This document shows positions 1,982 to 32,000 of a DNA stretch of 32,000 nucleotides, piece by piece (the stretch's first letter is position 1; each line of letters opens with the position of its first letter). Location: positions 991,207-1,023,206 of the forward strand of contig JAUIFI010000001.1 of assembly GCA_030429505.1 (NCBI GenBank), written 5' to 3'. This DNA is from Candidatus Saccharimonadota bacterium. GTDB taxonomy: Bacteria > Patescibacteriota > Gracilibacteria > UBA4473. The notes beneath the pieces were generated by a model. That model ran no database searches and had not been told where the DNA came from. It saw only the letters and a program-made list of their open reading frames with translations. Position numbers and translations under genes: made by a program.

Positions 1982-4066
1982 TTAGGTACTTTTTTCTGCC
2001 ATAATGCTTTCAGCCACATTTTTAGGTGTTTTCTGGTAATCCGCAAATTCCATTGTGTAACTAGCTCGACCTTGTGTGAGAGAGCGCAGGTCCGTCGCAT
2101 ATCCAAACATTGAAGCTAACGGAATACGAGCAGTAATAAACTTCGCCAAGCCTCGATCACCAGTTTCCTGGATAATCCCACGACGAGATGACACATCCCC
2201 CATCACATCTCCCAGATAATCCTCAGGGGTCACAATTTCCACATTCATGATCGGTTCTAAAAGTACAGGATCAGCTTTCTTCATACCATCTTTAAACGCT
2301 TGAATCGCCGCAATTTTAAACGCCAATTCAGAAGAATCCACATCATGATACGACCCATCATAGAGTTCTACCTCGACATCCACTACCGGATATCCAGCTA
2401 AAACTCCGCGAGTCGCTCCTTCCTTAAACCCTTTTTCACATCCGGGAATGTACTCATTTGGAATAGACGCTCCTTTGATAGAATTGATAAATTTAAATCC
2501 AACACCCGGTTCAGATGGACGGACTCGGCACAAAACATGCCCAAATTGTCCTCGACCACCAGATTGCTTCTTGTGTACATATTCAGCCTCAACAGCTTTC
2601 TGAATCGTTTCTCGGTAGGCGACTTGCGGCTGACCAATATTCGCCTCGACCTTAAATTCTCGCTTCATTCGATCGACCAGGACTTCCAAATGCAACTCTC
2701 CCATTCCAGACATAATTGTCTGATTCGTTTCTTCATCTGTATGTACACGAAAAGTCGGATCCTCTTCCGCTAATTTTTGCAGGGCTAATGACATTTTTTC
2801 TTGATCTCCTTTCGTCTTTGGCTCAATCGAAATCGAAATCACTGGCTCAGGAAAGTTAATCGACTCAAGAACAATGAGATTTTTTTCTGGACACAAAGTA
2901 TCTCCGGTACGAGTACTCTTGAGTCCTACCACGGCTCCGATATGCCCTGCCGGAATTTCAGAAATCTCCTCTCGGCTATTGGCATGCATCTGAAGCAAAC
3001 GACCAATTCGCTCTTTTTGTTCAGAATTGGCATTATATACATAACTTCCAGATTCAAGTTTTCCAGAATACACCCGGACAAACGTAATTCGACCCACATA
3101 CGGATCGGTCGCAATCTTAAACGCCAAAGCCGCCAAAGGCTCTGCCTTGTCAGCTTTCCGTGTCAATTCTTCTTCCTCATTATCAGGATTCGTTCCTTTT
3201 GCTGGCAAGATATCAAGAGGAGAAGGTAAGTAAGCCGTTACTGCATCGAGCAAAGGTTGCACACCTTTATTTTTCAAAGCCGTTCCGGTCATCACCGGTA
3301 CAAATTCACCAGCAATAGTAGCTCGACGAATAGCAGCTTTAATCTCATCAGCCGACAAATCAGCTCCACCCAAATATTTCTCCATCAATTCTTCATCAGA
3401 CGTCGCTACCGCTTCCAGCATCTTGTCTCTCCACTTATTCGCATCATCCACCATATCAGCTGGAATATCTTCTATTGAAATCTCTTTCCCGAGATCATCT
3501 TTGTACAAAATAGCCTTCATCTCGACCAAATCTACCAGCCCCTTGAAATGACTCTCCATACCAACCGGTAATTGAATAGGAAAAGCATTTTTTGTGAGTC
3601 GTTCCGTAATAGATCCATACGAACGCCAAAAATCAGCTCCCGTCCGATCCAGTTTATTGATAAAACACATGCGTGGCACGTTGTAGTCATCAGCTTGTCT
3701 CCAGACAGTTTCAGACTGTGGCTCCACTCCCGCGACACCATCAAAGACACACACCGCTCCATCCAAAACTCGCAAAGACCTCTGAACTTCTACCGTGAAA
3801 TCCACATGACCGGGAGTATCGATAATATTAATCTGACAATCTTTCCAAAAACAAGTCGTCGCCGCAGAAGTAATCGTAATACCACGCTCCTGTTCCTGCT
3901 CCATCCAATCCATGGTGGCTTCCCCCTCATGGACTTCACCGATCTTATGAGACTTTCCAGTATAAAAAAGAATCCGTTCGGTAACGGTCGTTTTTCCGGC
4001 ATCGATATGGGCGATAATCCCAATATTACGAACCTTATCCAAGGCATAGTGCGTGACTTTACTCAT
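1982..4066 (-). CDS. fusA: translation elongation factor G
   Basis: 694-aa ORF with GTPase motifs [17 protein letters not shown] and NKLDR, and EF-G domain IV/V signatures (GELHLEV, HDVDSSE). Confidence 0.97.
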
Positions 4067-4187
4067 TACAAAAAAATATAAAAAATCCCGTCGATTGTAG
4101 AAAGGGAGAGGAAATTGTCAAATGAGGAGAAAAAGAGTTGTATTATTACCAATAAAAATTATTAACTCTGAGACAATAGAGAAAATA

Positions 4188-4215
4188 GGCGTTAACTTTC
4201 TGTATAGTCAACGCC
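4188..4215 (-). terminator. putative terminator of the 4238..4528 gene
   Basis: Hairpin ggcgttaac/gtcaacgcc (9 bp, one mismatch) just downstream of the minus-strand stop, followed on the minus strand by a T-rich tract. Confidence 0.35.
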
Positions 4216-4237
4216 ACAGAGTATTACTCTTATTGTT

Positions 4238-4528
4238 CTAAGGGATAAAAGCCAGGGCAATGAGTACAAATCCAGCAAAAAACAGACAAATCGTCATTTT
4301 ACTAAAATCTTTCCCATAACCATAGTAATACTCATTCACTTTTTCCATAAGTGCCATATCAGAAAAACCTGCAATGCCCATAAATACTCGAATATAATAT
4401 GGCATATCCAATGGCCCCCAAAATATGCTAGAGACATATACTATAAGTATAATACCCCCAATGAATGCTAGTGCAATCTGCACATAGATGAGTTTGTCAC
4501 TCATCCACAGTAATATTTTATGTACCAC
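4238..4528 (-). CDS. small integral membrane protein (about 88-96 aa)
   Basis: Three hydrophobic helices. The track start is GTG at 4528; an alternative ATG lies at 4504. No family recognised. Confidence 0.5.
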   Translation of the reverse strand: MVHKILLWMSDKLIYVQIALAFIGGIILIVYVSSIFWGPLDMPYYIRVFMGIAGFSDMALMEKVNEYYYGYGKDFSKMTICLFFAGFVLIALAFIP

Positions 4529-4773
4529 GTACCACCTTAAAAAAATTTTTTAATGTAAAAAGAGCAATTTCCCCTAAATAGTAAGAAACCTCTCTCTTGC
4601 TTAATTTTATAATAAAAGAAGTTTTACTACTCTTGATTAAACCCTAAAATATAAAAAAATTAAGTCAATTATATCTGCTTTGATATTGTATTGTAGCTAA
4701 CAAAGATGTTACCACGTCTGCTCAAGGAAAGTAATACTAAAACGTGCTCTTAATAGCCAAAAAGTAATAGTAA

Positions 4774-5193
4774 ATGAAAATATACTTTGCCGGATCGATT
4801 CGAGGAGGAAGAGATGACAAAGAGTTATATGGGAAACTTATACAACATCTCGGAAAATACGGACAAGTGCTGACAGAACACGTTGGAGATGGAAATCTCA
4901 ACGATTCTGGAGAAGATCATCAACCAGATCAGTGGATTTATAAACGTGATATGGAGTGGGTTCGAGCATCAGATGTCATCGTAGCGGAAGTCACCACTCC
5001 CTCCCTCGGAGTCGGTTATGAGATCGGTAGCAGTGAAGCAATAGGAAAAAAGATTCTCTGTCTCTATAGAAGTCAACCAAATAAAAGTTTATCAGCCATG
5101 ATTAATGGCAATCCAAACGTACAGGTCATCTCATATGCCAACCTTGAAGAAGCCATTCATCATATAGATAAATTTTTTCAGTCACAATCGTGA
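4774..5193 (+). CDS. DNPH1/RCL-like 2'-deoxynucleoside 5'-phosphate N-hydrolase (nucleoside 2-deoxyribosyltransferase superfamily)
   Basis: Near-colinear match to DNPH1 hallmarks: YFAGSIRGGRDD, VLTEHV, VVAEVTTPSLGVGYEIG, KKILCLYR, SLSAMI. Confidence 0.85.
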   Translation: MKIYFAGSIRGGRDDKELYGKLIQHLGKYGQVLTEHVGDGNLNDSGEDHQPDQWIYKRDMEWVRASDVIVAEVTTPSLGVGYEIGSSEAIGKKILCLYRSQPNKSLSAMINGNPNVQVISYANLEEAIHHIDKFFQSQS

Positions 5194-5217
5194 CCTTCAC
5201 TTCATTACATATACAAG

Positions 5218-5523
5218 ATGAAATCATCGGAACTTACCATCAAAGAACTCATAAACATGATTATGCAACTCGCAGAAGAAAAGAAATTTGGCACGAAACC
5301 AGAAGATATCAATGTCGCTGAAAAAATGGTCTTGATCCATAGTGAAGTTTCAGAGGCTTTTGAAGCTTATCGTCGCAAGAATATGGACGGTCGGCACGGA
5401 TTCAAAGAAGAACTTGCCGATGTTATCATGCGGGTATTTCATCTCTGCGGTATCTTTGGTATTGATATACAAGCCGAAATACTCAAAAAAATGGAATACA
5501 ATAAAACCCGAGAATGGAAATGA
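5218..5523 (+). CDS. MazG-like nucleotide pyrophosphohydrolase (small all-alpha type, 101 aa)
   Basis: Acidic metal-binding helices of the MazG type: IHSEVSEAFEAYRR followed by KEELADVIMRVFHL. Starts 24 nt after the DNPH1-like gene on the same strand. Confidence 0.78.
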   Translation: MKSSELTIKELINMIMQLAEEKKFGTKPEDINVAEKMVLIHSEVSEAFEAYRRKNMDGRHGFKEELADVIMRVFHLCGIFGIDIQAEILKKMEYNKTREWK

Positions 5524-5727
5524 AAAACATAACGAACAAAGAAAAGAAGAAATATTCACAAAACAACTTGACTCCTTTGTAAAGAATGTTTATAAAAAAA
5601 AAGCTATTTACCAACTACAAACAGTACGTAAATGCGAAAAACTTTTCGATTGCCGTAGGGAGGCAATATCCATCTATTGATCAATTTGGGTATTGTCTCC
5701 GTTTTTTTTATACAACAAGTAAAAAAT

Positions 5728-5755
5728 TTGACAAAATCACTCGTCTGCCTAATAA
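5728..5755 (+). promoter_or_regulatory. sigma70-type promoter of infC-rpmI-rplT
   Basis: TTGACA (5728-5733), 16-nt spacer, TAATAA(T) (5750-5755). The predicted TSS near 5762 lies just upstream of the near-cognate infC start candidates. Confidence 0.45.
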
Positions 5756-5785
5756 TCCACCCGCTTTTTTCACTTTTCTTATACC

Positions 5786-6349
5786 ATAGGTATCTCATTT
5801 CGCGGCGGACGAAAAAATAAGCGTGCTGCTTTCAGAAAGCCCAAAAAACTTCATCGAACCAACGAGGAAATCACAGCCTCGACTTTGCGAGTCGTCGACT
5901 CAGCAGGCGAACTGGTCGGTGTGATAAGCTTGGACCAAGCACTTGAAAAAGCGCGTGAAGAAGGAGTCGACCTCGTCGAGATATCGCCCAAAGCAGACCC
6001 TCCCGTATGTCGAATCATCGACTATGGAAAAATGCTCTATGCACTCAAAAAGAAAGAGCAAAAAGGGAAGCAAGGCACGAAAACCCAAGAAATAAAAGGT
6101 ATTCGCCTCACCTTCCGTATAGGAGAAGGGGATATGGAGAGGCAGAGAAAAAAAGCGAGAGAATTTCTCGAAGAAGGTCATCCCATACGAATTCAGCTCG
6201 TTATGCGGGGACGAGAGAAAGCCCATAAAGACATAGCTTTTGAAAAATTAAACTCATTTATTGCAGGTCTTGCTGATATATCAAGACTTGAAAATAACCC
6301 AAAAGGATCAGGGCATCAAATAATAGCCATTCTCAAACCAGGAAAATAA
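5786..6349 (+). CDS. infC: translation initiation factor IF-3
   Basis: IF-3 N- and C-domain sequence (VDLVEISPKADPPVCRIIDYGK, IRLTFRIGEGD, RGRE). The in-frame reading is open from 5756 and encodes the conserved RTNEEITASTLRVVD segment upstream of the track TTG start at 5885. No ATG or GTG is available there, so the start is inferred at ATA 5786 or ATC 5792. Confidence 0.9.
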   Translation: MGISFRGGRKNKRAAFRKPKKLHRTNEEITASTLRVVDSAGELVGVISLDQALEKAREEGVDLVEISPKADPPVCRIIDYGKMLYALKKKEQKGKQGTKTQEIKGIRLTFRIGEGDMERQRKKAREFLEEGHPIRIQLVMRGREKAHKDIAFEKLNSFIAGLADISRLENNPKGSGHQIIAILKPGK

Positions 6350-7295: not shown

Positions 7296-7703
7296 ATGCC
7301 AAACACAATCAACTCTCACGCCGTTATTAAAAAAGTTAGTCGACTTATGAAAGAATTCGGAATTCCAAAAGTAAAGCTTGGAGAAGTCCTCGGAACCGAC
7401 AAAAAAAATGATATTCGAACGAAATATGCGAGAGGAAAACGGTTTTTGGAAGGAAATAAAAAAGGCATATCACTCGAAGAAATAAATCAGCTAGCAAGCT
7501 TTTTTAATCAGCCTATTGAATTTTTCTTATACGAAGAATCCGTATCCCAAAAGTTAAAATCAAGTGAAAAAAATATTGAAAGAACCTCAAAAGGAGAGTC
7601 AGAGATTAAGCAAGGTCTAGAAAAAATGGGTTTTCCTCCGGAATTTATAGAACTCCAAATACAACAGCTTCGACTTCTCAAAAAATATCAATCTCCACGT
7701 TGA
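7296..7703 (+). CDS. XRE-family helix-turn-helix protein, paralog 1 (135 aa)
   Basis: The N-terminal roughly 80 aa fit the HTH_3 pattern (IPKVKLGEVLG....YARGKRFLEGNKKGISLEEINQLASFFNQPIEFFLY). The C-terminal motif MGFxxEFIELxIQQLR is shared with the next gene. Confidence 0.7.
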   Translation: MPNTINSHAVIKKVSRLMKEFGIPKVKLGEVLGTDKKNDIRTKYARGKRFLEGNKKGISLEEINQLASFFNQPIEFFLYEESVSQKLKSSEKNIERTSKGESEIKQGLEKMGFPPEFIELQIQQLRLLKKYQSPR

Positions 7704-7836: not shown

Positions 7837-8235
7837 ATGAATCAAACAATAGATCCTTCTCATGTTATTACCCAAGTCAGACATCTGATGAAAAAATTAG
7901 ATATTCCCAAGGTAAAGTTGGGAGAAGTTTTAGGCAAAAATGTCAAAGACAGTATTCAAACCAAATACGCCCGAGCTAACCGATTTTTGAAAGGACAAAA
8001 AAAAGGTATTTCTTTAGAACAAATAAACCAATTAGCTACATTTTTTGAGAAACCAATCAATTTTTTTCTCTATCCTCAAAAACTAGAATCAGGAGAAAAG
8101 TGTACTCAGGATTCTCCTCCCGCAGAAAAAGCTATTCGAGAAGGATTAATGAAAATGGGATTTGACCAAGAGTTTATCGAACTTGAAATTCAACAGCTCC
8201 GTAAATTTCAGTCCTATCATTCTCCTCGATCATGA
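7837..8235 (+). CDS. XRE-family helix-turn-helix protein, paralog 2 (132 aa)
   Basis: Roughly 60 percent identical by eye to the 7296..7703 product over the HTH region, with the same C-terminal MGFDQEFIELEIQQLR motif. Confidence 0.7.
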   Translation: MNQTIDPSHVITQVRHLMKKLDIPKVKLGEVLGKNVKDSIQTKYARANRFLKGQKKGISLEQINQLATFFEKPINFFLYPQKLESGEKCTQDSPPAEKAIREGLMKMGFDQEFIELEIQQLRKFQSYHSPRS

Positions 8236-10493: not shown

Positions 10494-11195
10494 TCAACAT
10501 CCATCTTGGCAATCACGATCATATTCACTTTGTTCTGAACAGTCGGTTATACGCTCTTTACTCAGGAGCCTCATCCGTACAAAACGGTCCCCAAAAGTTA
10601 GATCATCTTGCCAACAGTATTGATAAGTTCTTCGACAGCAAGTGTTTCCACAAGCTTGCCATTTTGCAACTGTAACGGTCGTGGGATTTTCACCTTCTTC
10701 TGGGTAAGGGAGATCAAATCCGGGATCGCACTCACGAGAATCAGGATCAACTTCATAAGTACAATGAACCCAAATACCGCAAGAAGCACTATATATGCGA
10801 ACACTCATTGTGGTATCACTCGGTTCCGGAAAAGTATCATCAGCAAAGCCACAAGGAGGGAATGATCCTCTCTCGCTGACTCTCTCTACAAATGAGGATA
10901 TGGCAAATTCGAGTCCAACATTTAAGTTGTTCTCATACAAAGAAAGCCCTGGAAGGCTTTCACACTCTTCCTCAACGGAGATTGAGGTAATAAAAAATTC
11001 TGGTACATTGCTACCGTTACAAAATCGTTTTAGATAGAACACCCAGACATCACAATCCGGTTCTCCCAATCCGAGACGGATCCAAAGAGTGTCGCCCCAA
11101 GCATCACAGTTACTATCAGGTGGACACGGCTGAGCCATGACACCACTAAATTGAAAAAGAAAGACAAACAATAAGCAAATCAATCCTCTCTTCAT
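10494..11195 (-). CDS. secreted 16-cysteine protein, paralog A (unknown family)
   Basis: Signal peptide ending VMAQP, with 16 Cys in the mature part. The ATG at 11195 is preferred because GGAG lies 8 nt upstream; the track start is 11207. Confidence 0.72.
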   Translation of the reverse strand: MKRGLICLLFVFLFQFSGVMAQPCPPDSNCDAWGDTLWIRLGLGEPDCDVWVFYLKRFCNGSNVPEFFITSISVEEECESLPGLSLYENNLNVGLEFAISSFVERVSERGSFPPCGFADDTFPEPSDTTMSVRIYSASCGIWVHCTYEVDPDSRECDPGFDLPYPEEGENPTTVTVAKWQACGNTCCRRTYQYCWQDDLTFGDRFVRMRLLSKERITDCSEQSEYDRDCQDGC

Positions 11196-11233
11196 AAGAA
11201 GCTCCATTTAAAAAGTCGTGAATCTTTAGTGAA

Positions 11234-11923
11234 TTACAAACAACCATCCTGACATGGTATTGTTTGATACTTTTCCGCGTCGCTACAAGCGGTAATCTGT
11301 TCAGTACTAACAAGTTCAATATGAACAGAACGACCTGGACCTATTGAACAGTATCTAAAAGTTCTTTTGCAACAAGTAGTTCCGCAATCTTGAAATCGAT
11401 ATACGTCAACCTTGGACGGGGTCCCATAATCCAAAAAAGGTTCTTCAAAACCTCTTTCACACGTACGGGTAGTAACATCTACATCGTAGGTGCATTTCAC
11501 CCATACACCACACGAAGCGGTGTAGACTTGGGCATTGTAGCTAGTATCACTTGGGTTTGGATCTGAGCAGTCAGCCATGTTAGGGAAGTCTTGCCGTGCT
11601 CTCTGCTTTATAAAACCACGGGTGATAGTTTCAAATGCTACGCTTAGGTCGTACTGATAGACAGTAAGATCCCGCATTGCCTCGCATGTTCCCATATAGG
11701 AAACACCTGTAATAAGATATTGATACCCTTCATCGGGACAAAATCGTGATCTAAAATTCACTATAGCACGACAACTGGGATTAATTGTTATAAATCTTTC
11801 GTATTGCTCTGGTCCAAAATCACCGCAATCATCTGGTGGCGGACATGGTTGAGCAAATGCAGGAATTCCGCTATAAAAAAAGAGTAAACCAAAAAGCATG
11901 GTGAGATATTTGTAATATTTCAC
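11234..11923 (-). CDS. secreted 16-cysteine protein, paralog B (unknown family)
   Basis: Signal peptide ending AFAQP, with 16 Cys aligned with paralog A. GTG at 11923 is preferred because GAGG lies 6 nt upstream; the track start is TTG at 11935. Confidence 0.72.
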   Translation of the reverse strand: MKYYKYLTMLFGLLFFYSGIPAFAQPCPPPDDCGDFGPEQYERFITINPSCRAIVNFRSRFCPDEGYQYLITGVSYMGTCEAMRDLTVYQYDLSVAFETITRGFIKQRARQDFPNMADCSDPNPSDTSYNAQVYTASCGVWVKCTYDVDVTTRTCERGFEEPFLDYGTPSKVDVYRFQDCGTTCCKRTFRYCSIGPGRSVHIELVSTEQITACSDAEKYQTIPCQDGCL

Positions 11924-12131
11924 TTTATACCTCAAGGAATAAAAATAACAGGAAAGAAAGTAGAGTTAATTGCATACTAAAGAGATGCATTTTTAGGCGA
12001 ACAATGAATCAATACAAATTTTGGCGAACAACTAAACCAACAAGAAACACAAAAATAGAAGTTACGTAAAAGAGCTAAAAAATTATGAAAACATTAAAAA
12101 AAGTGTCAATCGTATTTCTAATCAAAAACAC

Positions 12132-16182: not shown

Positions 16183-17226
16183 ATGAGTGATACAGGATAT
16201 TTCGAATACTCAGATAGTCATAAAAAAGCATGGGATGATTTTGTTCTCCAATCTTCTTACGGTTCGATTCATCAAGTTTCTGACTGGAAATCATTTCAGG
16301 AAAAAATTCCAGGACGAGAAATAATTCGTGGATTTGGAATCAAATCAAAAGACCAGATCAAAGCGGTCACTTGGTGCATTCAAATGAAAACAGGGTTTCG
16401 GGATACTTTTTGGTGGTACTCTCCACGAGGACCAGTCTTTGATCCCATTAAGGATAAAAAATACGGCGAATTACTGATCGACCATATTCAATCTCAATTA
16501 CGTCAAACCAAAGCTCTTTTTTGGCGCTTTGATCCTTATTTTTCAACTCAAGAGTTTGAAACTCTCAAGGTTAAAACCCAAATGAGACCTTCCACTCAAG
16601 ACTACCAACCCACCAATACTTTGGAACTTGATCTAAACAAATCAAACGACCAGCTACTTAGCGAAATGAAGAGAAAAGGACGGTACAATATTAAGCTTGC
16701 GGAGAAAAAATCATTACGAGTTGAAGTCATTGAAAAAGGAAAATTTACAGATCAAGATATCAATGACTTCTGGCGACTCAATACCGAAACTACAAGCCGA
16801 GATGGATTTTCAGGACATGAAAAGAGTTATTACCAAAAACTTCTTACTTTCGTAAAAAATTATGCAGTCCTGTTTTTTATAACTACTTCTGATAATGTCC
16901 GTATTGCAACCGCTATTTCTACCTTTTGCAGTTCGAAAGCTATTTATTATTTTGGAGCTTCAACTTCCAATCCAGAACATCGTCCTCTTATGGCACCCTA
17001 TTTACTTCAATGGGAAATGATACAATTCGCTAGAATAAAAAAATGTACGACTTATGATTTTCTCGGCATCGCTCCCGAAAATGAACCAGATCATAAATAT
17101 AGTAGTATATCAGAATTTAAATGGAAATTTGGTGGAGAACGAAAAATTTATGGCAGAGGCAGAGAAATTGTCTTTTCTCCGTTCTGGTATCAAATCTATC
17201 AAGGAGTCAAACGACTTAAATCATAA
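16183..17226 (+). CDS. FemAB-family peptidoglycan interpeptide-bridge aminoacyltransferase (MurM/FemX-like)
   Basis: FemAB family pattern: MKRKGRYNIKLAEKK, TTSRDGF, YYFGAS....HRPLMAPYLLQWEMIQFA, YDFLGI, EFKWKFGG. The ATG immediately follows the upstream TAA (16180-16185 TAAATG). Confidence 0.85.
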   Translation: MSDTGYFEYSDSHKKAWDDFVLQSSYGSIHQVSDWKSFQEKIPGREIIRGFGIKSKDQIKAVTWCIQMKTGFRDTFWWYSPRGPVFDPIKDKKYGELLIDHIQSQLRQTKALFWRFDPYFSTQEFETLKVKTQMRPSTQDYQPTNTLELDLNKSNDQLLSEMKRKGRYNIKLAEKKSLRVEVIEKGKFTDQDINDFWRLNTETTSRDGFSGHEKSYYQKLLTFVKNYAVLFFITTSDNVRIATAISTFCSSKAIYYFGASTSNPEHRPLMAPYLLQWEMIQFARIKKCTTYDFLGIAPENEPDHKYSSISEFKWKFGGERKIYGRGREIVFSPFWYQIYQGVKRLKS

Positions 17227-22362: not shown

Positions 22363-24654
22363 TCAATCTGAAAGTCCATAAATTTCTCGCGGCTTAGCTC
22401 CTCTTGATGGACCAATGATTCCTCGTCCTTCCATTTGATCTAAGATCCGAGCCGCTCTCGCATAGCCGATTTCAAGCCTTCGTTGTAGGAAACTCGCAGA
22501 AGCTTTATTGGTTTCCAATACCACAAATACAGCATCTTGAAATAAAGGATCGAGATTTTCATCACTCGTAGCTTCTGAACCAGCGGTCAAAACACCTCCT
22601 TTGGCCATTCCTTCAATAGATTGATTGGTAATCTCGTCATTCGCAATCATTTCCGGGAACTGGAGTTTGATGTGATTCGTTACTCGTTCGACTTCTTCAT
22701 TTGATATATAAATCCCTTGAAGGCGTGTAAGTGTTCCACTATTTCCATCGAGATTGAGCATATCTCCAAAGCCCAATAAGTCTTCAGCTCCAATCTGATC
22801 AATAATTGTTCGAGAATCTATTCCCGAAGACACTTTAAAGGCGATTCGTGCTGGTAAATTGGCTTTGATAAGTCCCGTTACGACATCGACAGATGGACGT
22901 TGAGTTGCCACAATTAAATGCATACCGACCGCTCTCGCCATTTGAGCAATTCGACAAATCGCTGCTTCCACGTCTTTCCCTGCTACCATCATCAGATCTG
23001 CTAGCTCATCAATGACAATCACAATAAACGGTTCTTTTTCATCTTTATGTTTGTCATTGTATTCCGTAATATTTCGACACTTAGCTTTCTCAAACAACTT
23101 ATATCGACGATTCATCTCCGCCACAGCCCACGCTAAAGCCGAGACACATTTCTCTGGTTCTACAATTACAGGTGTCAAAAGGTACGGTAAATTATTGTAC
23201 AAAGACAATTCTACTCGCTTTGGATCAACGAGGATGAGTTTGAGTTTGTCTGGAGAGTTTTGCCACAAAAGAGATATCAAAAATGAATTCATCGCCACAG
23301 ATTTTCCAGAACCCGTCTTTCCAGCGATAAGCAAGTGAGGCATTTTTTGAAGATCTGCCACAAAAGGTTTTCCGGCTACATCTCGTCCCAAAGCTAGTTT
23401 GAGGTTCGAATCCGCATCAGCCCAGACATCAGACTCCAAAATTTCCCGCATACCGACAATGGCTCGGTCATCATTTGGTATCTCAATTCCCACCAAAGAT
23501 CGACCTTGAATCGGAGCTTCAATCCGTAAATTTTTCGCAGCCAATGCCAAGGCCAAATCATTCTTGAGAGCAGTAATTTTCGTAAGTTTGATCCCCGCCG
23601 AAGGTTGTAATGTAAATTGTGTCACCGTGGGTCCTACGTGGACAGATTTCATGATGACTTCAATTCCAAATTGTTCTAACTTTTCTCGAATCACCTCGGC
23701 TTTTTGACGAATTTTGGCTTCATCGACCACGATAGTAGAAATTTTCTCTTTTAGTAACTCAATATCTGGCGGCTCCCAAGTGCCGGAAAGTGCCTGATTT
23801 TTCGCTTTCGTTAATTCATCTTCCTTTTCTTCCAGGTCAACTGTGTTGGTTGAAGAAGGTTTGTCTCCGGTGGAATCAATAATTTCCAATTCATTTTTAA
23901 AATGTTGGGCAGCGGGTGTGATTTTTTGCTTGGTATTTGATTTATTGGAAGAAGCATTGTCAGAAATCGGAAGGTCTTTCTGAGGTCGAAATTTCTGTAA
24001 AACATCAGAAATACGAATACCAAAAGCCACCATTCCTGACACCCAGAACAAACCAAAAAGAAGCACCGCCGCTACCGTATCTCCCAAAAATTCACGAGGA
24101 AAAAACCCAATCGCAAATCCCAAAGCTCCACCATATGATTTAGAATCAGCCAGAGAATCTTCTAACGGCACAAATAGATTTAAAAAACCAAGCAGAGACA
24201 CAAAAAAGAGCAAAATGGCAAGGACTCGGGCAGGAGGGAATGTTTTGTCTCGCTGTAATAAAAAAGCCACCCCAATTCCTCCCAGAAAAAGAGGAATCAA
24301 CCATGTCCCCATACCAAAAAGCTTTGCGAGTAATGCGAGAAGTGTAACCGAAAAATCAGTCGTACTAAAAAACAAAGTCACCAAAAAAACAGCCGCTACA
24401 ATCCAGATCACCGCCCAAATTTCCGTTTTCATCGAATCATTCATAAAAGAATCCCACGCTTCATCTGTTTCTTTTTGTTTCGCTACTTTTTTAGCGGCTT
24501 TTTCCTTCGCTTTCATGCGAACAGCTTTTGTTTTTTCTTTCTTTTTTTCATTGTCCAACATCTTTTTAGCCATCTTTTCAGCCTCTTTTTTGAGGATCGA
24601 AGAAGGGATCTTTACTTTTGGCGCAGGCTTTCTCTTGGAAAACATACCCAACAT
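22363..24654 (-). CDS. ftsK: DNA translocase FtsK/SpoIIIE
   Basis: N-terminal TM domain, Walker A GKTGSGKS, Walker B VIVIDELADL, and a C-terminal gamma winged-helix (SFLQRRLEIGYARAARILDQME). Confidence 0.95.
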   Translation of the reverse strand: MLGMFSKRKPAPKVKIPSSILKKEAEKMAKKMLDNEKKKEKTKAVRMKAKEKAAKKVAKQKETDEAWDSFMNDSMKTEIWAVIWIVAAVFLVTLFFSTTDFSVTLLALLAKLFGMGTWLIPLFLGGIGVAFLLQRDKTFPPARVLAILLFFVSLLGFLNLFVPLEDSLADSKSYGGALGFAIGFFPREFLGDTVAAVLLFGLFWVSGMVAFGIRISDVLQKFRPQKDLPISDNASSNKSNTKQKITPAAQHFKNELEIIDSTGDKPSSTNTVDLEEKEDELTKAKNQALSGTWEPPDIELLKEKISTIVVDEAKIRQKAEVIREKLEQFGIEVIMKSVHVGPTVTQFTLQPSAGIKLTKITALKNDLALALAAKNLRIEAPIQGRSLVGIEIPNDDRAIVGMREILESDVWADADSNLKLALGRDVAGKPFVADLQKMPHLLIAGKTGSGKSVAMNSFLISLLWQNSPDKLKLILVDPKRVELSLYNNLPYLLTPVIVEPEKCVSALAWAVAEMNRRYKLFEKAKCRNITEYNDKHKDEKEPFIVIVIDELADLMMVAGKDVEAAICRIAQMARAVGMHLIVATQRPSVDVVTGLIKANLPARIAFKVSSGIDSRTIIDQIGAEDLLGFGDMLNLDGNSGTLTRLQGIYISNEEVERVTNHIKLQFPEMIANDEITNQSIEGMAKGGVLTAGSEATSDENLDPLFQDAVFVVLETNKASASFLQRRLEIGYARAARILDQMEGRGIIGPSRGAKPREIYGLSD

Positions 24655-25220: not shown

Positions 25221-25258
25221 GGGAGATATGCAGAATATCTGTGTATCTCTCTTTTTTT
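25221..25258 (+). terminator. intrinsic terminator
   Basis: Stem gggagata/tatctctc (with a G-U pair), followed by T7. It overlaps the 3' end of the convergent mutY-like gene. Confidence 0.5.
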
Positions 25259-26333
25259 ACGTTTTCATTTCCATCAACCTTTCCAACACCTTCTCATTCG
25301 CTTCCAAAAAATTAACTTTACCAAAATCCACTGGTGAGACCCAATCGAGCTTTTGCTTTTCCAAAGGCTGGGGCTCACCTTTCTGAATTTGACACCGATG
25401 AAAGCGAAGACGCAAGTGGACTTTTTCGAATTCATGTTCCTCTTCAAAAAAATGAGGTCTTACAGACACCTCAATCCCCAATTCTTCCAAAATTTCCCGC
25501 TTTACACACGCTCGAAAATCTTCGCCTTTTTCTCGTTTTCCACCTGGAAATTCCCACTTACCTTCAAAGCTTTTGCCTTTGGGGCGGCTTTGGATGAGGT
25601 ATTTTCCGTTTCGATGAATACACGCGATACCCACCTCAATGGTATGTTTTTTACTTTTCCCACTCTTCTTTTTGCTCTTTTGATTTAAAGAAGTGCGTTT
25701 AATGTTTCGAGTAGGTATAAATTTTGATGCTATTTGTGGCGGAAAAAATTGTCCTAACTCTCCTTTGATATCATCTCCATTTCGTAACGCTGTTGCCAAA
25801 TCCATCATAGCATTATTCCAATCTCGACCAGACGGACTGGCATAGACTAAGGTTTGCGCCATAGTTTCAACTTTTTCGCGAGACCATAAGATCTGAATGA
25901 TTTTAGTAATATTCGTGTCAATCGCTGGCACTTTTTTATCAAAAGCAAAGGCTAAGATCGCCCGAGCTGTATACTGACCAATACCGGGGAGTTGTTGCAA
26001 CTCAGTTGCATTAAGAGGAAATTGTCCGTCATGTTTCTGCACTATAATCTGAGCTGCTTTCAAAATATTCTTCCCTCGACGATAATATCCCAACCCCTTC
26101 CAACACGGAAAAACATCTTCCCACGTTGCTTTCGCCAAATCCTGAATGGTTGGAAAACGTTTCAAAAAATTTGGATAGAAATACTCTTTCACTCGGTTAA
26201 CCTGAGTTTGTTGAAGCATAATCTCAGAGATCCATATCTTGTACGGATCAATAGTTTCTCTCCAGGGAAGTTTACGACCATAGTCTTGATACCACCCCAA
26301 AAGGAGCTTGGTAAATGTAGCAGGCTCTTTCAT
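25257..26333 (-). CDS. mutY: MutY-type adenine DNA glycosylase fused to a MutT-type Nudix hydrolase domain
   Basis: N-terminal HhH-GPD region (EIMLQQTQV, LPGIGQYTARAIL, AIDTNI). A Lys-rich linker (KSKKKSGKSKKH). The C-terminal domain has a complete Nudix box GGKREKGEDFRACVKREILEELGI. ATG 26333 is preferred; the track TTG is at 26372. Confidence 0.85.
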   Translation of the reverse strand: MKEPATFTKLLLGWYQDYGRKLPWRETIDPYKIWISEIMLQQTQVNRVKEYFYPNFLKRFPTIQDLAKATWEDVFPCWKGLGYYRRGKNILKAAQIIVQKHDGQFPLNATELQQLPGIGQYTARAILAFAFDKKVPAIDTNITKIIQILWSREKVETMAQTLVYASPSGRDWNNAMMDLATALRNGDDIKGELGQFFPPQIASKFIPTRNIKRTSLNQKSKKKSGKSKKHTIEVGIACIHRNGKYLIQSRPKGKSFEGKWEFPGGKREKGEDFRACVKREILEELGIEVSVRPHFFEEEHEFEKVHLRLRFHRCQIQKGEPQPLEKQKLDWVSPVDFGKVNFLEANEKVLERLMEMKT

Positions 26334-26393
26334 AATCACTTCTTTTCTACTGGAAGAGAGTCTGAAAATCAATGTTAGATTTTCTTTTTAATC

Positions 26394-27377
26394 CTACGGA
26401 GCAATAAAGAAAAACATAATCGTCCAAGCAGAAAAAGCTAAGATAAGACCTATGATGGAAGCCACCACGATCCGTTTTGCTTCTTCGGTCGCTTCATCAT
26501 TAATACCAAAATTAAGCATCAGTCGTATTCCAGCCCAGATCAAAGATATAACAGCAATCACACCAATCACACCAAGAATAAAATTAATCCAGTCTATCAA
26601 AAATGCAATCGTACCAGTAATCTCTGGAACAGCGAGTTCTCTCGTGGTTTTCCCAACGCCCGCTTCTGAATAAAATCCTCTATTGTTGGTAAATAAATCA
26701 ATTATTTTTTGTGCCGAAACCAAAATAACCATCCCAATCGACGCAAAGAGAATTTGCTTTCGGAAGGTGGATAGTGCTTCCTGGTTGTCCGAACCTGCCA
26801 TAATAAGTCTGATTGAGGCGAAAATTACGAATCCTACAGCCACCGCTACTGCAAAGGTAAGAAGATAATTAAATATTCCTTGGAGTTCTGTAAAGCCACG
26901 ACTAGCAAATTCAACTGAATCATTCTCATGTAAAATTTCACCTTCGCTTCCAAAGAAGATAGAGTCTACAGCCACTACTGACAGTAAGATAATCGCAAAA
27001 CCCAAGGCAACACTGAGAATCATTTGCTTTTTTTCGTTGTAAACTTCTTCTTTTCCACGAGAAGCTATAAGTTGAACCCCTCCCCAAGCAATAAGAATAA
27101 TAGAAATGGGGATAAGAAATTTATGCAAGTAATCACGAAGAATATCAACGATAATACGAAACTGAAATTCTCCTCGATCACTTTTGGTTAAAGAATTTTC
27201 TACCCGAAACGTATAATCCTTCAGATATTCACTCCCATACTTACTATTAAAAAATAAATCTTCTGGATCATTGCTAAAGATGGGTTGGTTCGTCAAAGAA
27301 TTCGTTTGAGCCAAAGCATCTCCACCTCCAAATGAGAGGAATGGAAGTATGAAAAGAGTCAGAAAAAATATCTTCAT
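26394..27377 (-). CDS. membrane protein with three VirB2/TrbC-like two-helix modules (327 aa)
   Basis: Signal peptide, then three repeats of TM helix, short acidic/polar loop, TM helix. Examples of the loop regions are IAWGGVQLIASRGKEE.., FASIRLIMAGSDNQEA.. and LIWAGIRLMLNFGINDEA... Confidence 0.7.
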   Translation of the reverse strand: MKIFFLTLFILPFLSFGGGDALAQTNSLTNQPIFSNDPEDLFFNSKYGSEYLKDYTFRVENSLTKSDRGEFQFRIIVDILRDYLHKFLIPISIILIAWGGVQLIASRGKEEVYNEKKQMILSVALGFAIILLSVVAVDSIFFGSEGEILHENDSVEFASRGFTELQGIFNYLLTFAVAVAVGFVIFASIRLIMAGSDNQEALSTFRKQILFASIGMVILVSAQKIIDLFTNNRGFYSEAGVGKTTRELAVPEITGTIAFLIDWINFILGVIGVIAVISLIWAGIRLMLNFGINDEATEEAKRIVVASIIGLILAFSAWTIMFFFIAP

Positions 27378-28282
27378 CGAATGAAAAAAGTAATGATGAT
27401 AAAGCTAGAAAGGGCTGTGACAATACCAATGACAGAAGCCATAACCATGCTTTTGGCTCGTTTCGTTTGGTCTTCGCTACCAAAACTCGATACAAAATAT
27501 AAACTTGATAAAATGAGCATAATAGTGGCTGCCACAGCCAGAAAAGAAAGAATAAAATTAATAATTCCGAGTATTTCACTATTAGCCGTTAGCTCCGCAC
27601 TACGAGGATCAGCATTACTCAAGACACGAACAATAACCTCTGACATAAGGATAAAAACCACACCTAATACAAAAGAACGAATGAATTTTTTTTCATTCGA
27701 AATAGTCTCGTCATTTTCTCCTCCCGTGATAAGGGCATATCCCGAGATAGCAAGATACACCAGCATAATACCAGTAATAATGATCTGAAAGAAGGTTTTA
27801 ATCTGATTAATCTTGCTTCCCAAATTTGCCATGATAAAAGAGCTTTGTTCGACATCTATTTTCGGGTTTGCTGGATCAACAAGTTGAAACGCAACAAACT
27901 CTGCCACAGATATAACAGCAAGTCCTAAGATTAGCCATCCAAACTGAGCTTTGAGCTTACTCATTTTTTCTTCCTCCCCCTGAGCAAAAATAAATCGAGC
28001 TCCCAAAACTACAAGGAGTAAAATAGCCGCTCCCCCCAAAAATATATTTACTCTCGTAATGAGATCATTTTTTCGATCATCTTTTCTTTGGAAAAGTGTC
28101 CTAATGGCATTTTCAGTTCCTTCATCGAAACCATCATCAATAACACTCTGTACAATATTATCCCTTATGATAGGGGCATAATTTCCACTAGGAAGTGGAA
28201 GCGTATTGATGTCTTGAGCAAAACTTCCCCCAGCTCCACAGACAGAAAAGGCAAGAAAGAAAGTAAAAATCAACGTTTTCAT
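27374..28282 (-). CDS. membrane protein with three VirB2/TrbC-like two-helix modules, paralog (about 302 aa)
   Basis: Same architecture as the downstream gene, and its stop overlaps that gene's start by 4 nt. The start is placed at ATG 28282 (MKTLIFTFFLAF...) because a TTGAGA-17-TATAAT promoter lies inside the longer track ORF (..28351). Confidence 0.68.
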   Translation of the reverse strand: MKTLIFTFFLAFSVCGAGGSFAQDINTLPLPSGNYAPIIRDNIVQSVIDDGFDEGTENAIRTLFQRKDDRKNDLITRVNIFLGGAAILLLVVLGARFIFAQGEEEKMSKLKAQFGWLILGLAVISVAEFVAFQLVDPANPKIDVEQSSFIMANLGSKINQIKTFFQIIITGIMLVYLAISGYALITGGENDETISNEKKFIRSFVLGVVFILMSEVIVRVLSNADPRSAELTANSEILGIINFILSFLAVAATIMLILSSLYFVSSFGSEDQTKRAKSMVMASVIGIVTALSSFIIITFFIR

Positions 28283-28289
28283 TCTTCCC

Positions 28290-28318
28290 ATTATACCAGA
28301 AAAAAGCACTTTTCTCAA
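28290..28318 (-). promoter_or_regulatory. sigma70-type promoter, possibly producing a leaderless mRNA
   Basis: On the minus strand: TTGAGA (28318-28313), 17 nt, TATAAT (28295-28290). The ATG at 28282 lies 7 nt after the -10 box. Confidence 0.45.
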
Positions 28319-28370
28319 ATATCTTTGCCAGTATTCATGGTTATTTGACAAACGTACAACGGCTTATAAA

Positions 28371-28643
28371 ATGGGGCGGCTTTTATGTTCTTTTTTGTTC
28401 GTGGTTATGATAGCGTGGCTTCTTATTCCTCTTGGCGTCGTAATGATTGTCAAAGCCGATAAAATCGTAAGTTTTACCGGCGAGATTCCTTTTGCAGAAA
28501 AAGTATTTGGATCTGGAGGAACCTACACATTCGTAAAAGTTCTGGGCTTACTTATGTCCATTTTTGCATTTATGTGGGTCTTTGGAGGACTGGATAGTTT
28601 TCTCCAAGCCACACTCGGAAAGTTTATTCCCGGTTCACAGTAG
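28371..28643 (+). CDS. small membrane protein (90 aa, two TM helices)
   Basis: Two hydrophobic helices. Divergent from the pilin-like pair. The start is uncertain; an in-frame ATG at 28407 is an alternative. Confidence 0.5.
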   Translation: MGRLLCSFLFVVMIAWLLIPLGVVMIVKADKIVSFTGEIPFAEKVFGSGGTYTFVKVLGLLMSIFAFMWVFGGLDSFLQATLGKFIPGSQ

Positions 28644-28718: not shown

Positions 28719-28795
28719 GGGGCTATAGCTCAGCTGGCTAGAGCACCTGCTTTGCAAGCAGGGGGTCCAGGGTTCGAATCCCTGTAGCTCCACCA
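28719..28795 (+). tRNA. tRNA-Ala (anticodon UGC), CCA encoded
   Basis: I folded the cloverleaf by hand: acceptor GGGGCUA/UAGCUCC, anticodon arm CCUGC-UUUGCAA-GCAGG, T arm CAGGG-UUCGAAU-CCCUG, G3:U70 present, 3' ACCA. Confidence 0.95.
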
Positions 28796-28875
28796 AGAAA
28801 AAATCTGTGGAAAACCACAAAACTTTAAACTCCATTTAAGCAAAAAACGAAATAAAAAAGCGACTTAGCGACCAC

Positions 28876-28950
28876 GGGTTGGTAGCTCAGTGGTAGAGCA
28901 GTGGCCTTTTAAGCCATTGGCCGTGGGTTCGAACCCCACCCAACCCACCA
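28876..28950 (+). tRNA. tRNA-Lys (anticodon UUU), CCA encoded
   Basis: Acceptor GGGUUGG/CCAACCC, anticodon arm GUGGC-CUUUUAA-GCCAU, T arm GUGGG-UUCGAAC-CCCAC, 3' ACCA. Confidence 0.95.
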
Positions 28951-29103: not shown

Positions 29104-29364
29104 TTAATCGATTTTTCGATCCTTTGTATCTTCATCAAGAGGCTTGGCCGGTTCGTTGTCTAGGCCTGTCCAATCCAAGTGGATCTTGCCATTTTTGTCG
29201 GCTTCTTTGGTTCTGTCCCTGATTGTGGATTCTACTCTGGCCCACGTATCGGGTGTGATTTTCTCCCGAACGATATTGCCATTTTCGTCGGAGCCGACAA
29301 AGTAGGCGTTGATTTTAGGATGCTTGCCGTCCGATTCAAACGGAATCAGTTTCCGCTGTGCCAT
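29104..29364 (-). CDS. small acidic hypothetical protein, paralog 1 (86 aa)
   Basis: Starts MAQRK at ATG 29364; the longer track ORF would include the promoter. Shares the MAQxK N-terminus, a central D(E/N)xGN region and the C-terminal LDW(T/S)GLDN(E/N)PA motif with the 29476..29748 product. Confidence 0.55.
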   Translation of the reverse strand: MAQRKLIPFESDGKHPKINAYFVGSDENGNIVREKITPDTWARVESTIRDRTKEADKNGKIHLDWTGLDNEPAKPLDEDTKDRKID

Positions 29365-29392
29365 AAAGTGTGTAGTTAACAAATGCACACAA

Positions 29393-29421
29393 ATCTTAGC
29401 ACAAAAATGGACAGATGTCAA
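29393..29421 (-). promoter_or_regulatory. promoter of small paralog 1
   Basis: On the minus strand: TTGACA (29421-29416), 17 nt, TAAGAT (29398-29393). The conserved 5'UTR block TTTGTTAACtACAC follows. Confidence 0.45.
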
Positions 29422-29475: not shown

Positions 29476-29748
29476 TCAGGCCGGATTGTTGTCGAGACCC
29501 GACCAGTCAAGCTCAATCTTGCTATTGGCAGTTGACTTTTTTTCTACAAGGTCTTGATTGTCACTTTCTGTCCGAGTATCGTGAGCGCTTTCCGATATTG
29601 CAATGTTGTCCGAGACTTTCTTGCGTGTGTCTTCTTTCACAATCTGAAAAATTCGATTGCCGTGATTATCAACTCTTTCGATTGTTGTAGTTGACGTATT
29701 AACATCGTCGCCGTTTTCAGACAGAGATCTGATCTTAAATTGTGCCAT
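29476..29748 (-). CDS. small acidic hypothetical protein, paralog 2 (90 aa)
   Basis: MAQFK start and ELDWSGLDNNPA C-terminus. See paralog 1. Confidence 0.55.
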   Translation of the reverse strand: MAQFKIRSLSENGDDVNTSTTTIERVDNHGNRIFQIVKEDTRKKVSDNIAISESAHDTRTESDNQDLVEKKSTANSKIELDWSGLDNNPA

Positions 29749-30400: not shown

Positions 30401-32000
30401 ATGGTTTTCAAAAAAATAGTTGCACACCCTACAAAAAAAGATATCTGTTGGCTAGGAAGAATAGTAAAGTCTTTAGCTTTTGCATTGACTGTTTGGGTTG
30501 CTTTTTTGAGTAATGTCCAATACTCATATGCTTTTGCAGGTGGAGACGGATCAGTAGGAGATCCCTACCAGATATCGACTTGTTCGGAGCTACAAGATAT
30601 GAAGGATAATCTATCTTCAAATTTTATTCTGATAAAACCTATCGACTGTAGCGCCACTTCTGGTTGGAATAGTGGAAATGGATTTATTCCTGTGGGAGAT
30701 TCTATTACGGCTTTTACGGGAACCCTTGACGGAAAAGGATATACAATTGATAGTCTCTTTATCGATCGAGGATCTACGAATGATGTGGGACTCTTTGGTC
30801 GAGCTAGCGGGGCGACCATCAAATCTGTAGGACTCACTAACGCTGATATTAAAGGATCTACCAGAACAGGAGGAATTGCAGGGTATGCACTACAGTCGGC
30901 AGACATAGATCAGGTCTATGTTACAGGAACGATAAGAGGAAATGGATCGATTGATGAGGTGGGAGGTATTTTAGGAAGGATGAATACGTCTTCAACTCTT
31001 GATGATGCTTATTCTACAGCTACTATAAGTGCTACCAGTGCAGGAGAGGTTGGTGGGGCTATTGGGCAAATTACCAACTCGGCTATTATCACTAACGCTT
31101 ATGCAGTAGGGAGTGTTGCTTTGGGGGGACTTGGTGGAGGAAGTTTTATAGGAGATACGGGGACTGGAACGACTGTTCAAGATTCTTTTGCAACAGGTAG
31201 TATTTCGGGGGGGCTTAATACTGCAGGGTTTGGTGGAGACCATGCGGGTACATTTACGAATATTCACTGGGATTCTACAAGAACCGGGGAATTAACTTGT
31301 TATCAAGGTGGAAGTACTGGCTGTACAGACCATGGAGGAACTTATTGGTTTAATACCTCCAGTAATGCTCCTATGGATCAATGGGACTTTACGAATATTT
31401 GGCAGACTGTTTCAGACAGCTATCCAGTATTCAAGGATGTAGCAAAACCTGCTATCATGAGTGGAACCTTGGCTGCTGATAATAGCTATGTAGACGTAGT
31501 GTTTAGTGAAGGAGTGTATGATACCAATGGAGGTTCCGGTGCCTTGGAAACAGGAGATTTAGCACTGACTTTCACTCAAAATGGTGGAGGAGTTACGAAT
31601 GTAACGATCAGTAGTGTGAAGCAGAATGATAATGCAGTAGAAGGGAGTGCATCAGCGTTGGCCGGAGGAGAGACTACAGTCCGAGTTTTTCTCAATGTTA
31701 CAGGTAGTTCTACTGGCGTTGAGACAATCGAAATAACACCAACCGACAGTACTTCAATCTACGATGCAGTCGGAAATGCCTCGGATCATACACTGCAGAC
31801 GACAGGATTGCTTTCTATGGCTGATGGTCTAGTACCAACAATTGATAGTGGGACACTGGCGGGGAACAATGGGTACGTGGACGTAGTGATGAGTGAAGGA
31901 GTGTATAATACGAATGGAGGAAGCGGAGCATTGGAGACAACGGACCTTACAATCACATTCGTGCAAAATGGAGGGAATGCAACAAACGCCACGATCAGTA
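30401..32000 (+). CDS. large secreted GLUG-motif surface protein with tandem Ig-like repeats (5' partial, continues past the window end)
   Basis: Absent from the supplied ORF track. I translated it by hand and checked the frame at several coordinates, finding an uninterrupted frame from ATG 30401 to 32000 (more than 533 codons). It has a signal peptide (..VWVAFLSNVQYSYAFA), then GDGSVGDPYQISTCSELQDM...FTGTLDGKGYTIDSLFI...VGLFG...GGIAG repeats typical of GLUG beta-helix regions, then 129-aa repeats. Confidence 0.8.
   Translation, partial: MVFKKIVAHPTKKDICWLGRIVKSLAFALTVWVAFLSNVQYSYAFAGGDGSVGDPYQISTCSELQDMKDNLSSNFILIKPIDCSATSGWNSGNGFIPVGDSITAFTGTLDGKGYTIDSLFIDRGSTNDVGLFGRASGATIKSVGLTNADIKGSTRTGGIAGYALQSADIDQVYVTGTIRGNGSIDEVGGILGRMNTSSTLDDAYSTATISATSAGEVGGAIGQITNSAIITNAYAVGSVALGGLGGGSFIGDTGTGTTVQDSFATGSISGGLNTAGFGGDHAGTFTNIHWDSTRTGELTCYQGGSTGCTDHGGTYWFNTSSNAPMDQWDFTNIWQTVSDSYPVFKDVAKPAIMSGTLAADNSYVDVVFSEGVYDTNGGSGALETGDLALTFTQNGGGVTNVTISSVKQNDNAVEGSASALAGGETTVRVFLNVTGSSTGVETIEITPTDSTSIYDAVGNASDHTLQTTGLLSMADGLVPTIDSGTLAGNNGYVDVVMSEGVYNTNGGSGALETTDLTITFVQNGGNATNATIS
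31460..32000 (+). repeat. tandem 387-nt (129-codon) coding repeat within the GLUG protein gene
   Basis: Unit 1 (31460-31846) starts SGTLAADNSYVDVVFSEGVYDTNGGSGALETGDLALTFTQNGG. Unit 2 starts at 31847 with SGTLAGNNGYVDVVMSEGVYNTNGGSGALETTDLTITFVQNGG. The block agtgaaggagtgtat recurs at 31505 and 31892. Confidence 0.7.

Follow-up and report, generated by a model that had tools for sequence, protein, structure and literature searches.

The stretch of DNA analysed here (the window) comprises 32,000 nucleotides (nt) of contig JAUIFI010000001.1 from an ultra-small, Peribacteria-like bacterium recorded as Candidatus Saccharimonadota. It carries two overlapping genes, B and A, whose products combine a predicted signal peptide and a short ectodomain with three helix-loop-helix modules that resemble the VirB2-like pilins of type IV secretion systems (T4SS). 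The positions of the genes, their modules and the associated features are given in Table 1. The longest open reading frame (ORF) of gene B (27374-28351, minus strand, 325 amino acids, aa) opens at an upstream TTG at 28351. Translation probably begins instead at the ATG at 28282, to give a protein with the N-terminus MKTLIF, because the homologues in the family alignment all begin at the equivalent MKK and a promoter-like site, purely a consensus match, lies just upstream, stopping 7 nt short of this ATG. Both A and B are real genes, since orthologues of each (39-47% identity for B, 35-44% for A) exist in conserved order.

Table 1. Positions of the B/A pair, its modules and associated features in the window.
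Feature	Position	Strand	Description or basis
Gene B	27374..28282	-	302-aa precursor: signal peptide, ~65-aa ectodomain, three PF18895 hairpin modules
Promoter-like site TTGAGA-17-(TG)TATAAT	28290..28318	-	11/12 matches, consensus match
Predicted signal peptide of B, MKTLIFTFFLAFSVCGAGGSFA followed by Q	28217..28282	-	hydropathy; cleavage site judged by eye
Module B1, class m1	27866..28078	-	module search and position hidden Markov models (HMMs)
Module B2, class m2	27611..27835	-	module search and position HMMs
Module B3, class m3 (closest to free-standing pilins)	27377..27589	-	C-terminal end of B
Stop/start overlap of B and A, ATGA	27374..27377	-	TGA is the B stop, ATG the A start; read directly
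Gene A	26394..27377	-	327-aa precursor: signal peptide, ~45-aa ectodomain, three PF18895 hairpin modules
Predicted signal peptide of A, MKIFFLTLFILPFLSFGGGDALA followed by Q	27309..27377	-	hydropathy; cleavage site judged by eye
Module A1, class m1	26940..27170	-	module search and position HMMs
Module A2, class m2	26676..26903	-	module search and position HMMs
Module A3, class m3	26397..26609	-	C-terminal end of A
mutY	25257-26372		same layout as in relatives
ftsK	22363-24654		same layout as in relatives

Hydropathy profiles of A and B alike contain an N-terminal hydrophobic leader followed by six long hydrophobic helices. The signal peptides were derived from these profiles and their cleavage sites were placed by eye, not by a predictor. 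The loops of the hairpins are short and run from acidic to basic residues in the pattern G-[DE]3-x3-[KR]. An earlier reading of the same DNA (the original prediction) had described two genes of 327 and about 302 aa joined by a 4-nt stop/start overlap, each encoding a signal peptide and three helix-loop-helix units; coordinates, hydropathy and the three-stretch profile matches described below agree with it, and the six loop strings that it quoted are all present in A and B. No Shine-Dalgarno-like sequence was found upstream of the ATGA, and an overlap of this kind without such a sequence points to coupled translation of B and A, which would give similar amounts of the two proteins and make co-assembly probable.

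Pilin-like modules and predicted structure

Pfam family PF18895 (T4SS_pilin) matches both A (E = 1.4e-17, 63.9 bits) and B (E = 1.6e-11, 44.6 bits), in three stretches each. When the modules are searched singly the same family is the top match for all six; against its gathering cut-off of 26.6 bits, three modules pass alone (A2 29.0, A3 42.6 and B2 28.1 bits) and three fall below (B1 26.5, only 0.1 bit short, B3 20.4 and A1 18.4 bits). The family PF04956 (TrbC/VirB2) scores 32.0 bits with the whole of A, above its cut-off of 27.9 bits, and gives no whole-protein match with B, the best B module being B2 (23.2 bits). As controls, A and B were each reversed and A was shuffled three times with its helix/loop layout preserved; none of these sequences matches PF18895 or PF04956 up to E = 10, and their best random matches reach about 17 bits and are to unrelated membrane families. 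In NCBIfam the best match is NF045849 (A, E = 4e-8, score 32.9; B, E = 6e-8, score 32.4), below the cut-off of 40. By these profiles A and B can be placed securely in the PF18895 superfamily of VirB2-like T4SS pilins, in keeping with the VirB2/TrbC-like modules originally proposed.

The modules also resemble one another. BLASTP aligns A3 with B3 (43.5% identity, E = 2e-13) and A2 with A3 (E = 4e-5), and profile-profile comparison of the three module sub-alignments, taken from a 91-sequence family alignment, gives probabilities of 98-99% (E from 7e-14 to 2e-18). Judged by these comparisons the repetition of the module is beyond chance, which bears out the predicted triplication.

AlphaFold2 gave a weak model from an alignment of 19 sequences [predicted local distance difference test (pLDDT) 66]. 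With 91 sequences the pLDDT is 82.6, exceeding 90 across most helical regions, and the predicted template modelling score (pTM) is 0.66. This model consists of three hairpins (residues 65-105/110-141, 151-194/199-229 and 253-288/294-325) whose six helices, each of 31-44 residues, exceed a plain membrane span; the helices of conjugative pilins are likewise longer than such a span. A Foldseek search of the whole model against the PDB gives a best E of 0.5 with TM-scores below 0.25, and retrieves no known transporter fold with six transmembrane helices (six-TM). Matches to designed coiled coils and 'Pizza' propellers in PDB profile searches were rejected as spurious, each matching stretch being insignificant.

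Module classes, relatives and conserved order

A and B align end to end as collinear paralogues (25% identity, E = 2e-14), the two first modules pairing with each other and the two third modules likewise, as expected from the tandem gene duplication of the original prediction. Position HMMs score 53-108 bits on the diagonal and 3-57 bits off it, in both paralogues and in every relative, so that modules 1, 2 and 3 behave as position-specific, non-equivalent classes. Because A and B are collinear and the module classes are position-specific in both, the triplication must, on the alignments, be older than the A/B duplication; by this reading the hairpin was first tripled, the three positions next became specialised, and the gene was duplicated last, to give B and A. 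Position 3 is the one against which single-hairpin pilins that stand alone, in the same genomes or in metagenomic arrays, have their highest scores; module 3 retains the ancestral form, from which modules 1 and 2 are derived.

Two other derivations were considered and rejected. The pair is not a fused six-gene array, since the genes of such arrays, all m3-like, do not recur with a 1-2-3 periodicity, and since A matches B collinearly. Six-module proteins are not in general fusions of B and A; this holds for P0103 only (595 aa, from the representative library), a single chain whose B-type three-module half comes before its A-type half; in the others m3-like units have multiplied independently. 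P0103 has arisen either through natural fusion of the two genes in their order or through a frameshift at the ATGA overlap, and its single chain fits B and A working together.

A word-indexed protein search returned full-length relatives at 35-47% identity, 5 for A and 14 for B, one of them named Candidatus Gracilibacteria bacterium; a third such search (with the full-length alignment) yielded just 8 matches and little that was new. Scanning one genome per species, a set to which the source genome does not belong, identified 14 loci, all in metagenome-assembled genomes labelled Candidatus Peribacteria, Gracilibacteria or Altimarinota. Complete genomes with the pair include OY781871.1 (962 kb). 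In a library of 1.84 billion representative proteins, the A+B profile matches 44,535 clusters at E <= 1e-3, 4,722 at 1e-10 and 380 at 1e-30 (the last defined at 50% identity), and the best 150 matches are nearly all collinear and full-length. The triple-hairpin architecture is not rare. It had been put forward as one not known to be described, and this stands in so far as we found no description of chains with several pilin modules in the searchable literature; two corrections apply, the occurrence in hundreds of clusters with up to eight modules per chain and the membership of an existing Pfam family.

Among 168 proteins drawn from the profile matches and word-search homologues, three modules are present in 139, four in 13, five in 3, six in 6, and seven and eight in one each; the 5 two-module proteins are mostly short and possibly truncated. 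The last module is always at the C-terminus of the protein (median tail 2 residues) and the N-terminal region may be as short as 4 residues or as long as about 800; in the family alignments conservation is strong in the helices and loops, not in the ectodomain. The extreme is illustrated by P0075 (L010, 1833-4976), an A-type orthologue of 1047 aa whose ectodomain of ~780 aa, containing a Peptidase_S8 subtilase and DUF4215, precedes the three modules. CarboxypepD_reg-like domains occur in the N-terminal region of two other multi-module homologues. Metagenomic loci retrieved with a four-module query mostly conform to the pattern already published, arrays of 6-10 separate single-hairpin genes.

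The order B-type then A-type, with three modules in each, is shared by every one of the 16 related loci in which both genes are seen, and most of these pairs have the 4-nt overlap or abut directly. B and A each define an ancient orthologue group, the two groups always occur as a pair, and in each one chain has three non-equivalent hairpins behind a signal peptide and a variable ectodomain. A mutY/NUDIX gene comes after the pair in L001 and L002, with ftsK next in L001; in most other loci there are ORFs whose size and position match the mutY/ftsK block. The B/A region has been inherited vertically as a block of the chromosome and is no mobile element. In L017 pilin-like genes stand between the pair and mutY and ftsK: three type-IV-pilin-like genes (PF07963 N_methyl, one with Laminin_G_3 in addition) lie around mutY at 2282-5797, between the pair and ftsK, so that T4SS-type and type-IV-type pilin genes adjoin.

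Possible roles of the gene pair

Canonical VirB2/TrbC/TraA pilins (PF04956) are single hairpins, encoded inside T4SS operons, which polymerise with lipid into pili. A and B share with them the signal peptide, the two long hydrophobic helices and the short polar loop. They differ in having three hairpins per chain, not one, and in not being encoded with VirB4 and other T4SS genes (32-kb window; 10 kb in 16 loci). A and B are not canonical VirB2. The Mbov_0395 family (NF045849, a pilin-like conjugal transfer protein of Mycoplasma integrative and conjugative elements), the best NCBIfam match of A and B, is a pilin-like two-helix protein of a monoderm; it differs in having only one hairpin, of 80 residues, and in being encoded on a mobile element. 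Multiplication of hairpins within one chain has a precedent in the proteolipid (c/K) subunits of A- and V-type ATPases, whose hairpins, normally separate subunits of an oligomer, are duplicated or triplicated within one polypeptide; the function of these subunits, an ion-translocating rotor, is unrelated, and no sequence or fold similarity of A or B to channel or proteolipid families was found.

Single-module PF18895 members are already treated as T4SS pilins of Patescibacteria (PMC12102498, PMC10633639). These proteins, including SEML1_0006-0019 of Southlakia epibionticum, belong to the same Pfam family as A and B and have, like them, a signal peptide, a hairpin whose loop is G-acidic-basic and a module placed at the C-terminus; module 3 of A and B scores like these proteins. 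They are, however, proteins of 90-170 aa with one hairpin, encoded by 2-11 separate genes often near virB4, whereas A and B have three non-equivalent hairpins per chain, form a fixed gene pair and have no virB4 nearby. In Patescibacteria single-module PF18895 pilins form arrays of 2-11 genes, and only about 58% are near virB4; VirB4 itself is present in about 80% of Patescibacteria assemblies, with adjoining VirB2-like genes in 1135 of 1948 assemblies (PMC12102498). By the criterion of that study A and B, adjacent and both PF18895-positive, constitute a two-gene VirB2 array. In the T4SS cluster of Southlakia the predicted pilin subunits are essential (PMC10633639); they number six by the count of PMC12857230. 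What sets A and B apart from the pilins described so far is that three position-specific modules are joined covalently, that B and A are conserved as a pair, and that the block is used at the C-terminus to carry enzymes.

We propose, at a probability of roughly 45%, that A and B serve as pre-linked building blocks, or as the base, of the pilus or conduit of VirB2 type ascribed to Patescibacteria. Both proteins would be exported by Sec, the leader removed and the ectodomain left outside. Each hairpin would insert N-out/C-out, its G-acidic-basic loop facing the cytoplasm, as TraA and VirB2 propilins are known to do; because every hairpin adds an even number of helices, modules can be strung together with this topology kept. 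Co-transcribed and translationally coupled through the ATGA, B and A would supply three-hairpin blocks, or a membrane base, for a VirB2-type pilus or conduit built with T4SS-related genes, and would display on the outside the N-terminal ectodomain, which in orthologues may be a subtilase or an Ig-like domain. Linkage would fix which of the non-equivalent hairpins neighbour each other, an end that other lineages presumably reach via arrays of 6-10 separate pilin genes. In favour of a building block we count the likeness of module 3 to free-standing pilins and its constant C-terminal place, as well as the variable ectodomains and the peptidoglycan hydrolase beside the pair in L018.

Several observations weigh against this proposal. 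The VirB4, VirD4 and VirB6 families were found neither in the 32-kb window nor within 10 kb of the pair in the 16 related loci, as the original prediction had noted for the neighbourhood, and the Walker-A proteins of the window are EF-G and FtsK only; since VirB2-like genes adjoin VirB4 in just 1135 of 1948 assemblies, distance from virB4 is weak evidence either way. The Foldseek search with the whole model matches no solved pilin, nor do PDB sequence-profile searches with full-length and single-hairpin alignments, and the link to canonical VirB2 therefore rests on the Pfam and NCBIfam profiles, without a match to a solved structure. A pilus of this kind has been observed in no Patescibacterium (PMC12857230), and the Peribacteria genome paper names a system for type II secretion along with type IV pili, but no T4SS (PMC4736985). 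It is also hard to picture six helices being extracted from the membrane, or an ectodomain of ~780 aa (P0075) being accommodated in a tight filament, a difficulty that favours a membrane-resident or minor-subunit role.

Such a role is taken further if the six-helix block stays in the cytoplasmic membrane as an anchor or platform, where it either holds variable ectodomains (protease, adhesin-like) at the cell surface or nucleates or templates a structure made of free-standing pilins. We regard this as possible but doubtful. It would account for N-terminal regions of such variable length, with Peptidase_S8, CarboxypepD_reg and PKD domains, in front of modules always placed at the extreme C-terminus, for the divergence of modules 1 and 2 from free-standing pilins and for the free-standing PF18895 gene near the pair in 8 relatives; the reported absence of VirB6 homologues from class Gracilibacteria (PMC12102498) points the same way. 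The short ectodomains in the window (about 45 and 65 aa) imply, however, that display is not the sole conserved function, and conservation is strong in helices and loops, not in the ectodomain. A more speculative reading, which we consider unlikely, is that B and A form a self-sufficient VirB4-free device, in which six covalently ordered, non-equivalent VirB2-type hairpins (3+3) make up an envelope conduit of fixed stoichiometry or a nucleating platform that replaces the VirB6 missing from this lineage; on this view the arrays of 6-10 genes in other Patescibacteria would encode the same hetero-oligomer in unlinked form and not interchangeable antigenic variants. Quite unlikely, too, is an oligomeric pore or ring independent of T4SS, a membrane channel unrelated to secretion machinery whose covalently multiplied hairpins set its stoichiometry. 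No T4SS gene lies nearby in 17 loci including the window, the neighbours mutY and ftsK are housekeeping genes, and rotor rings of A/V-type ATPases contain hairpins multiplied in a single chain; on the other hand the profile matches are to pilin families only, with no channel or proteolipid similarity, and Foldseek finds no matching fold.

Each chain might also be a polyprotein that is cut between its modules, as signal peptidase could do behind helix 2 in modules 1 and 2, to release three single pilins. Some helix-2 ends do look like signal peptidase sites (VSA/Q in A module 2; SVA/E in B module 1), and VirB2/TrbC pilins undergo processing at both ends. The candidate sites are not conserved, however, and the A family keeps V-D, a poor site, after module 1; a mere precursor would have no need of position-specific classes kept over long divergence, and AlphaFold2 predicts one confident six-helix unit (pTM 0.66). 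We consider this very unlikely. The original prediction had also allowed for an unrelated six-TM transporter family whose resemblance to pilins stems from hydrophobic composition, and single modules do score weakly against many transmembrane families. This alternative is hardly credible: Pfam, NCBIfam, PDB profile and Foldseek searches give no six-TM transporter match, and the 63.9 and 44.6 bits of the real proteins stand against reversed and layout-preserving shuffled controls that fail to match either pilin family. The pilin assignment had been staked on profile similarity to VirB2/TrbC and on the lack of a transporter match, and came through on both counts.

VirB2-like pilins are essential in the sole Patescibacteria species tested. 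To our knowledge the T4SSs of monoderms normally have no pilus, hence the VirB2-like pilins of Patescibacteria are puzzling. Hairpins in fixed order, in a B/A pair kept across deep divergence, suggest that specific hairpins are neighbours, which argues for a defined hetero-oligomer over interchangeable variants. For modelling or cryo-EM of the putative pilus, the linked chains give concrete restraints, namely which hairpins are neighbours and how long the linkers are (13-30 residues). The pilin hairpin block also serves as a C-terminal carrier of proteases and adhesin-like domains.

Neighbouring pilin genes and minor features of the window

In L001, L003, L004, L007, L013, L014 and L015 a single-hairpin PF18895 gene stands alone 5-6 kb downstream of the pair (about 8 kb in L015); in the eighth locus, L016, such a gene lies about 8 kb upstream. 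There are two such genes in L001 (16720-17548) and in L004, and the L003 gene is at 16393-16845. The downstream genes point away from a large ORF that, where complete, measures ~670-720 aa and is similar in size to the 673-aa SLH protein of the window. At the corresponding place the window has thioredoxin and DsbD-like genes, with no free-standing pilin gene within the 32 kb. In the distant relative L018 (2942-7924) an 845-aa Amidase_2/SpoIID cell-wall hydrolase precedes the pair, which is flanked by single-module PF18895 proteins, one of them fused to PKD domains, and by a PKD-repeat protein. Two unrelated metagenomic contigs, L022 (5571-11879) and L032 (5162-10863), carry 8 single-hairpin PF18895 genes directly downstream of a gene for an extracellular solute-binding protein (SBP_bac_1). 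The large ORFs beside metagenomic pilin arrays were considered as VirB4 candidates and rejected; they encode PKD, PNPase, solute-binding and tRNA-synthetase proteins.

Within the window, a 90-aa ORF with two hydrophobic helices (28371-28643, plus strand) is divergent from gene B and has a promoter-like site at 28345-28372; it matches nothing in Pfam or NCBIfam, nor the pilin-module HMM. Just past tRNA-Ala and tRNA-Lys (28719-28950) are two adjacent ORFs of 105 and 90 aa (29104-29421 and 29476-29748, minus strand) with a common C-terminal LDW(T/S)GLDN(E/N)PA and no Pfam match. Tandem paralogues of 135 and 132 aa (7296-7703 and 7837-8235, plus strand), also lacking a Pfam match, have near-identical N-terminal halves (...IPKVKLGEVLG...). 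A second tandem pair (10494-11207 and 11234-11935, minus strand) encodes paralogous secreted cysteine-rich proteins (a leader, then AQPCPP...) and adjoins an 803-aa protein with no family match and a protein with a Por_Secre_tail sorting domain. At about 30401-32000 (plus strand) an ORF of at least 530 aa with a signal peptide continues past the end of the window, and the GC skew there, at +0.18 to +0.25, is strongly positive, which sets this part apart from the remainder of the window.

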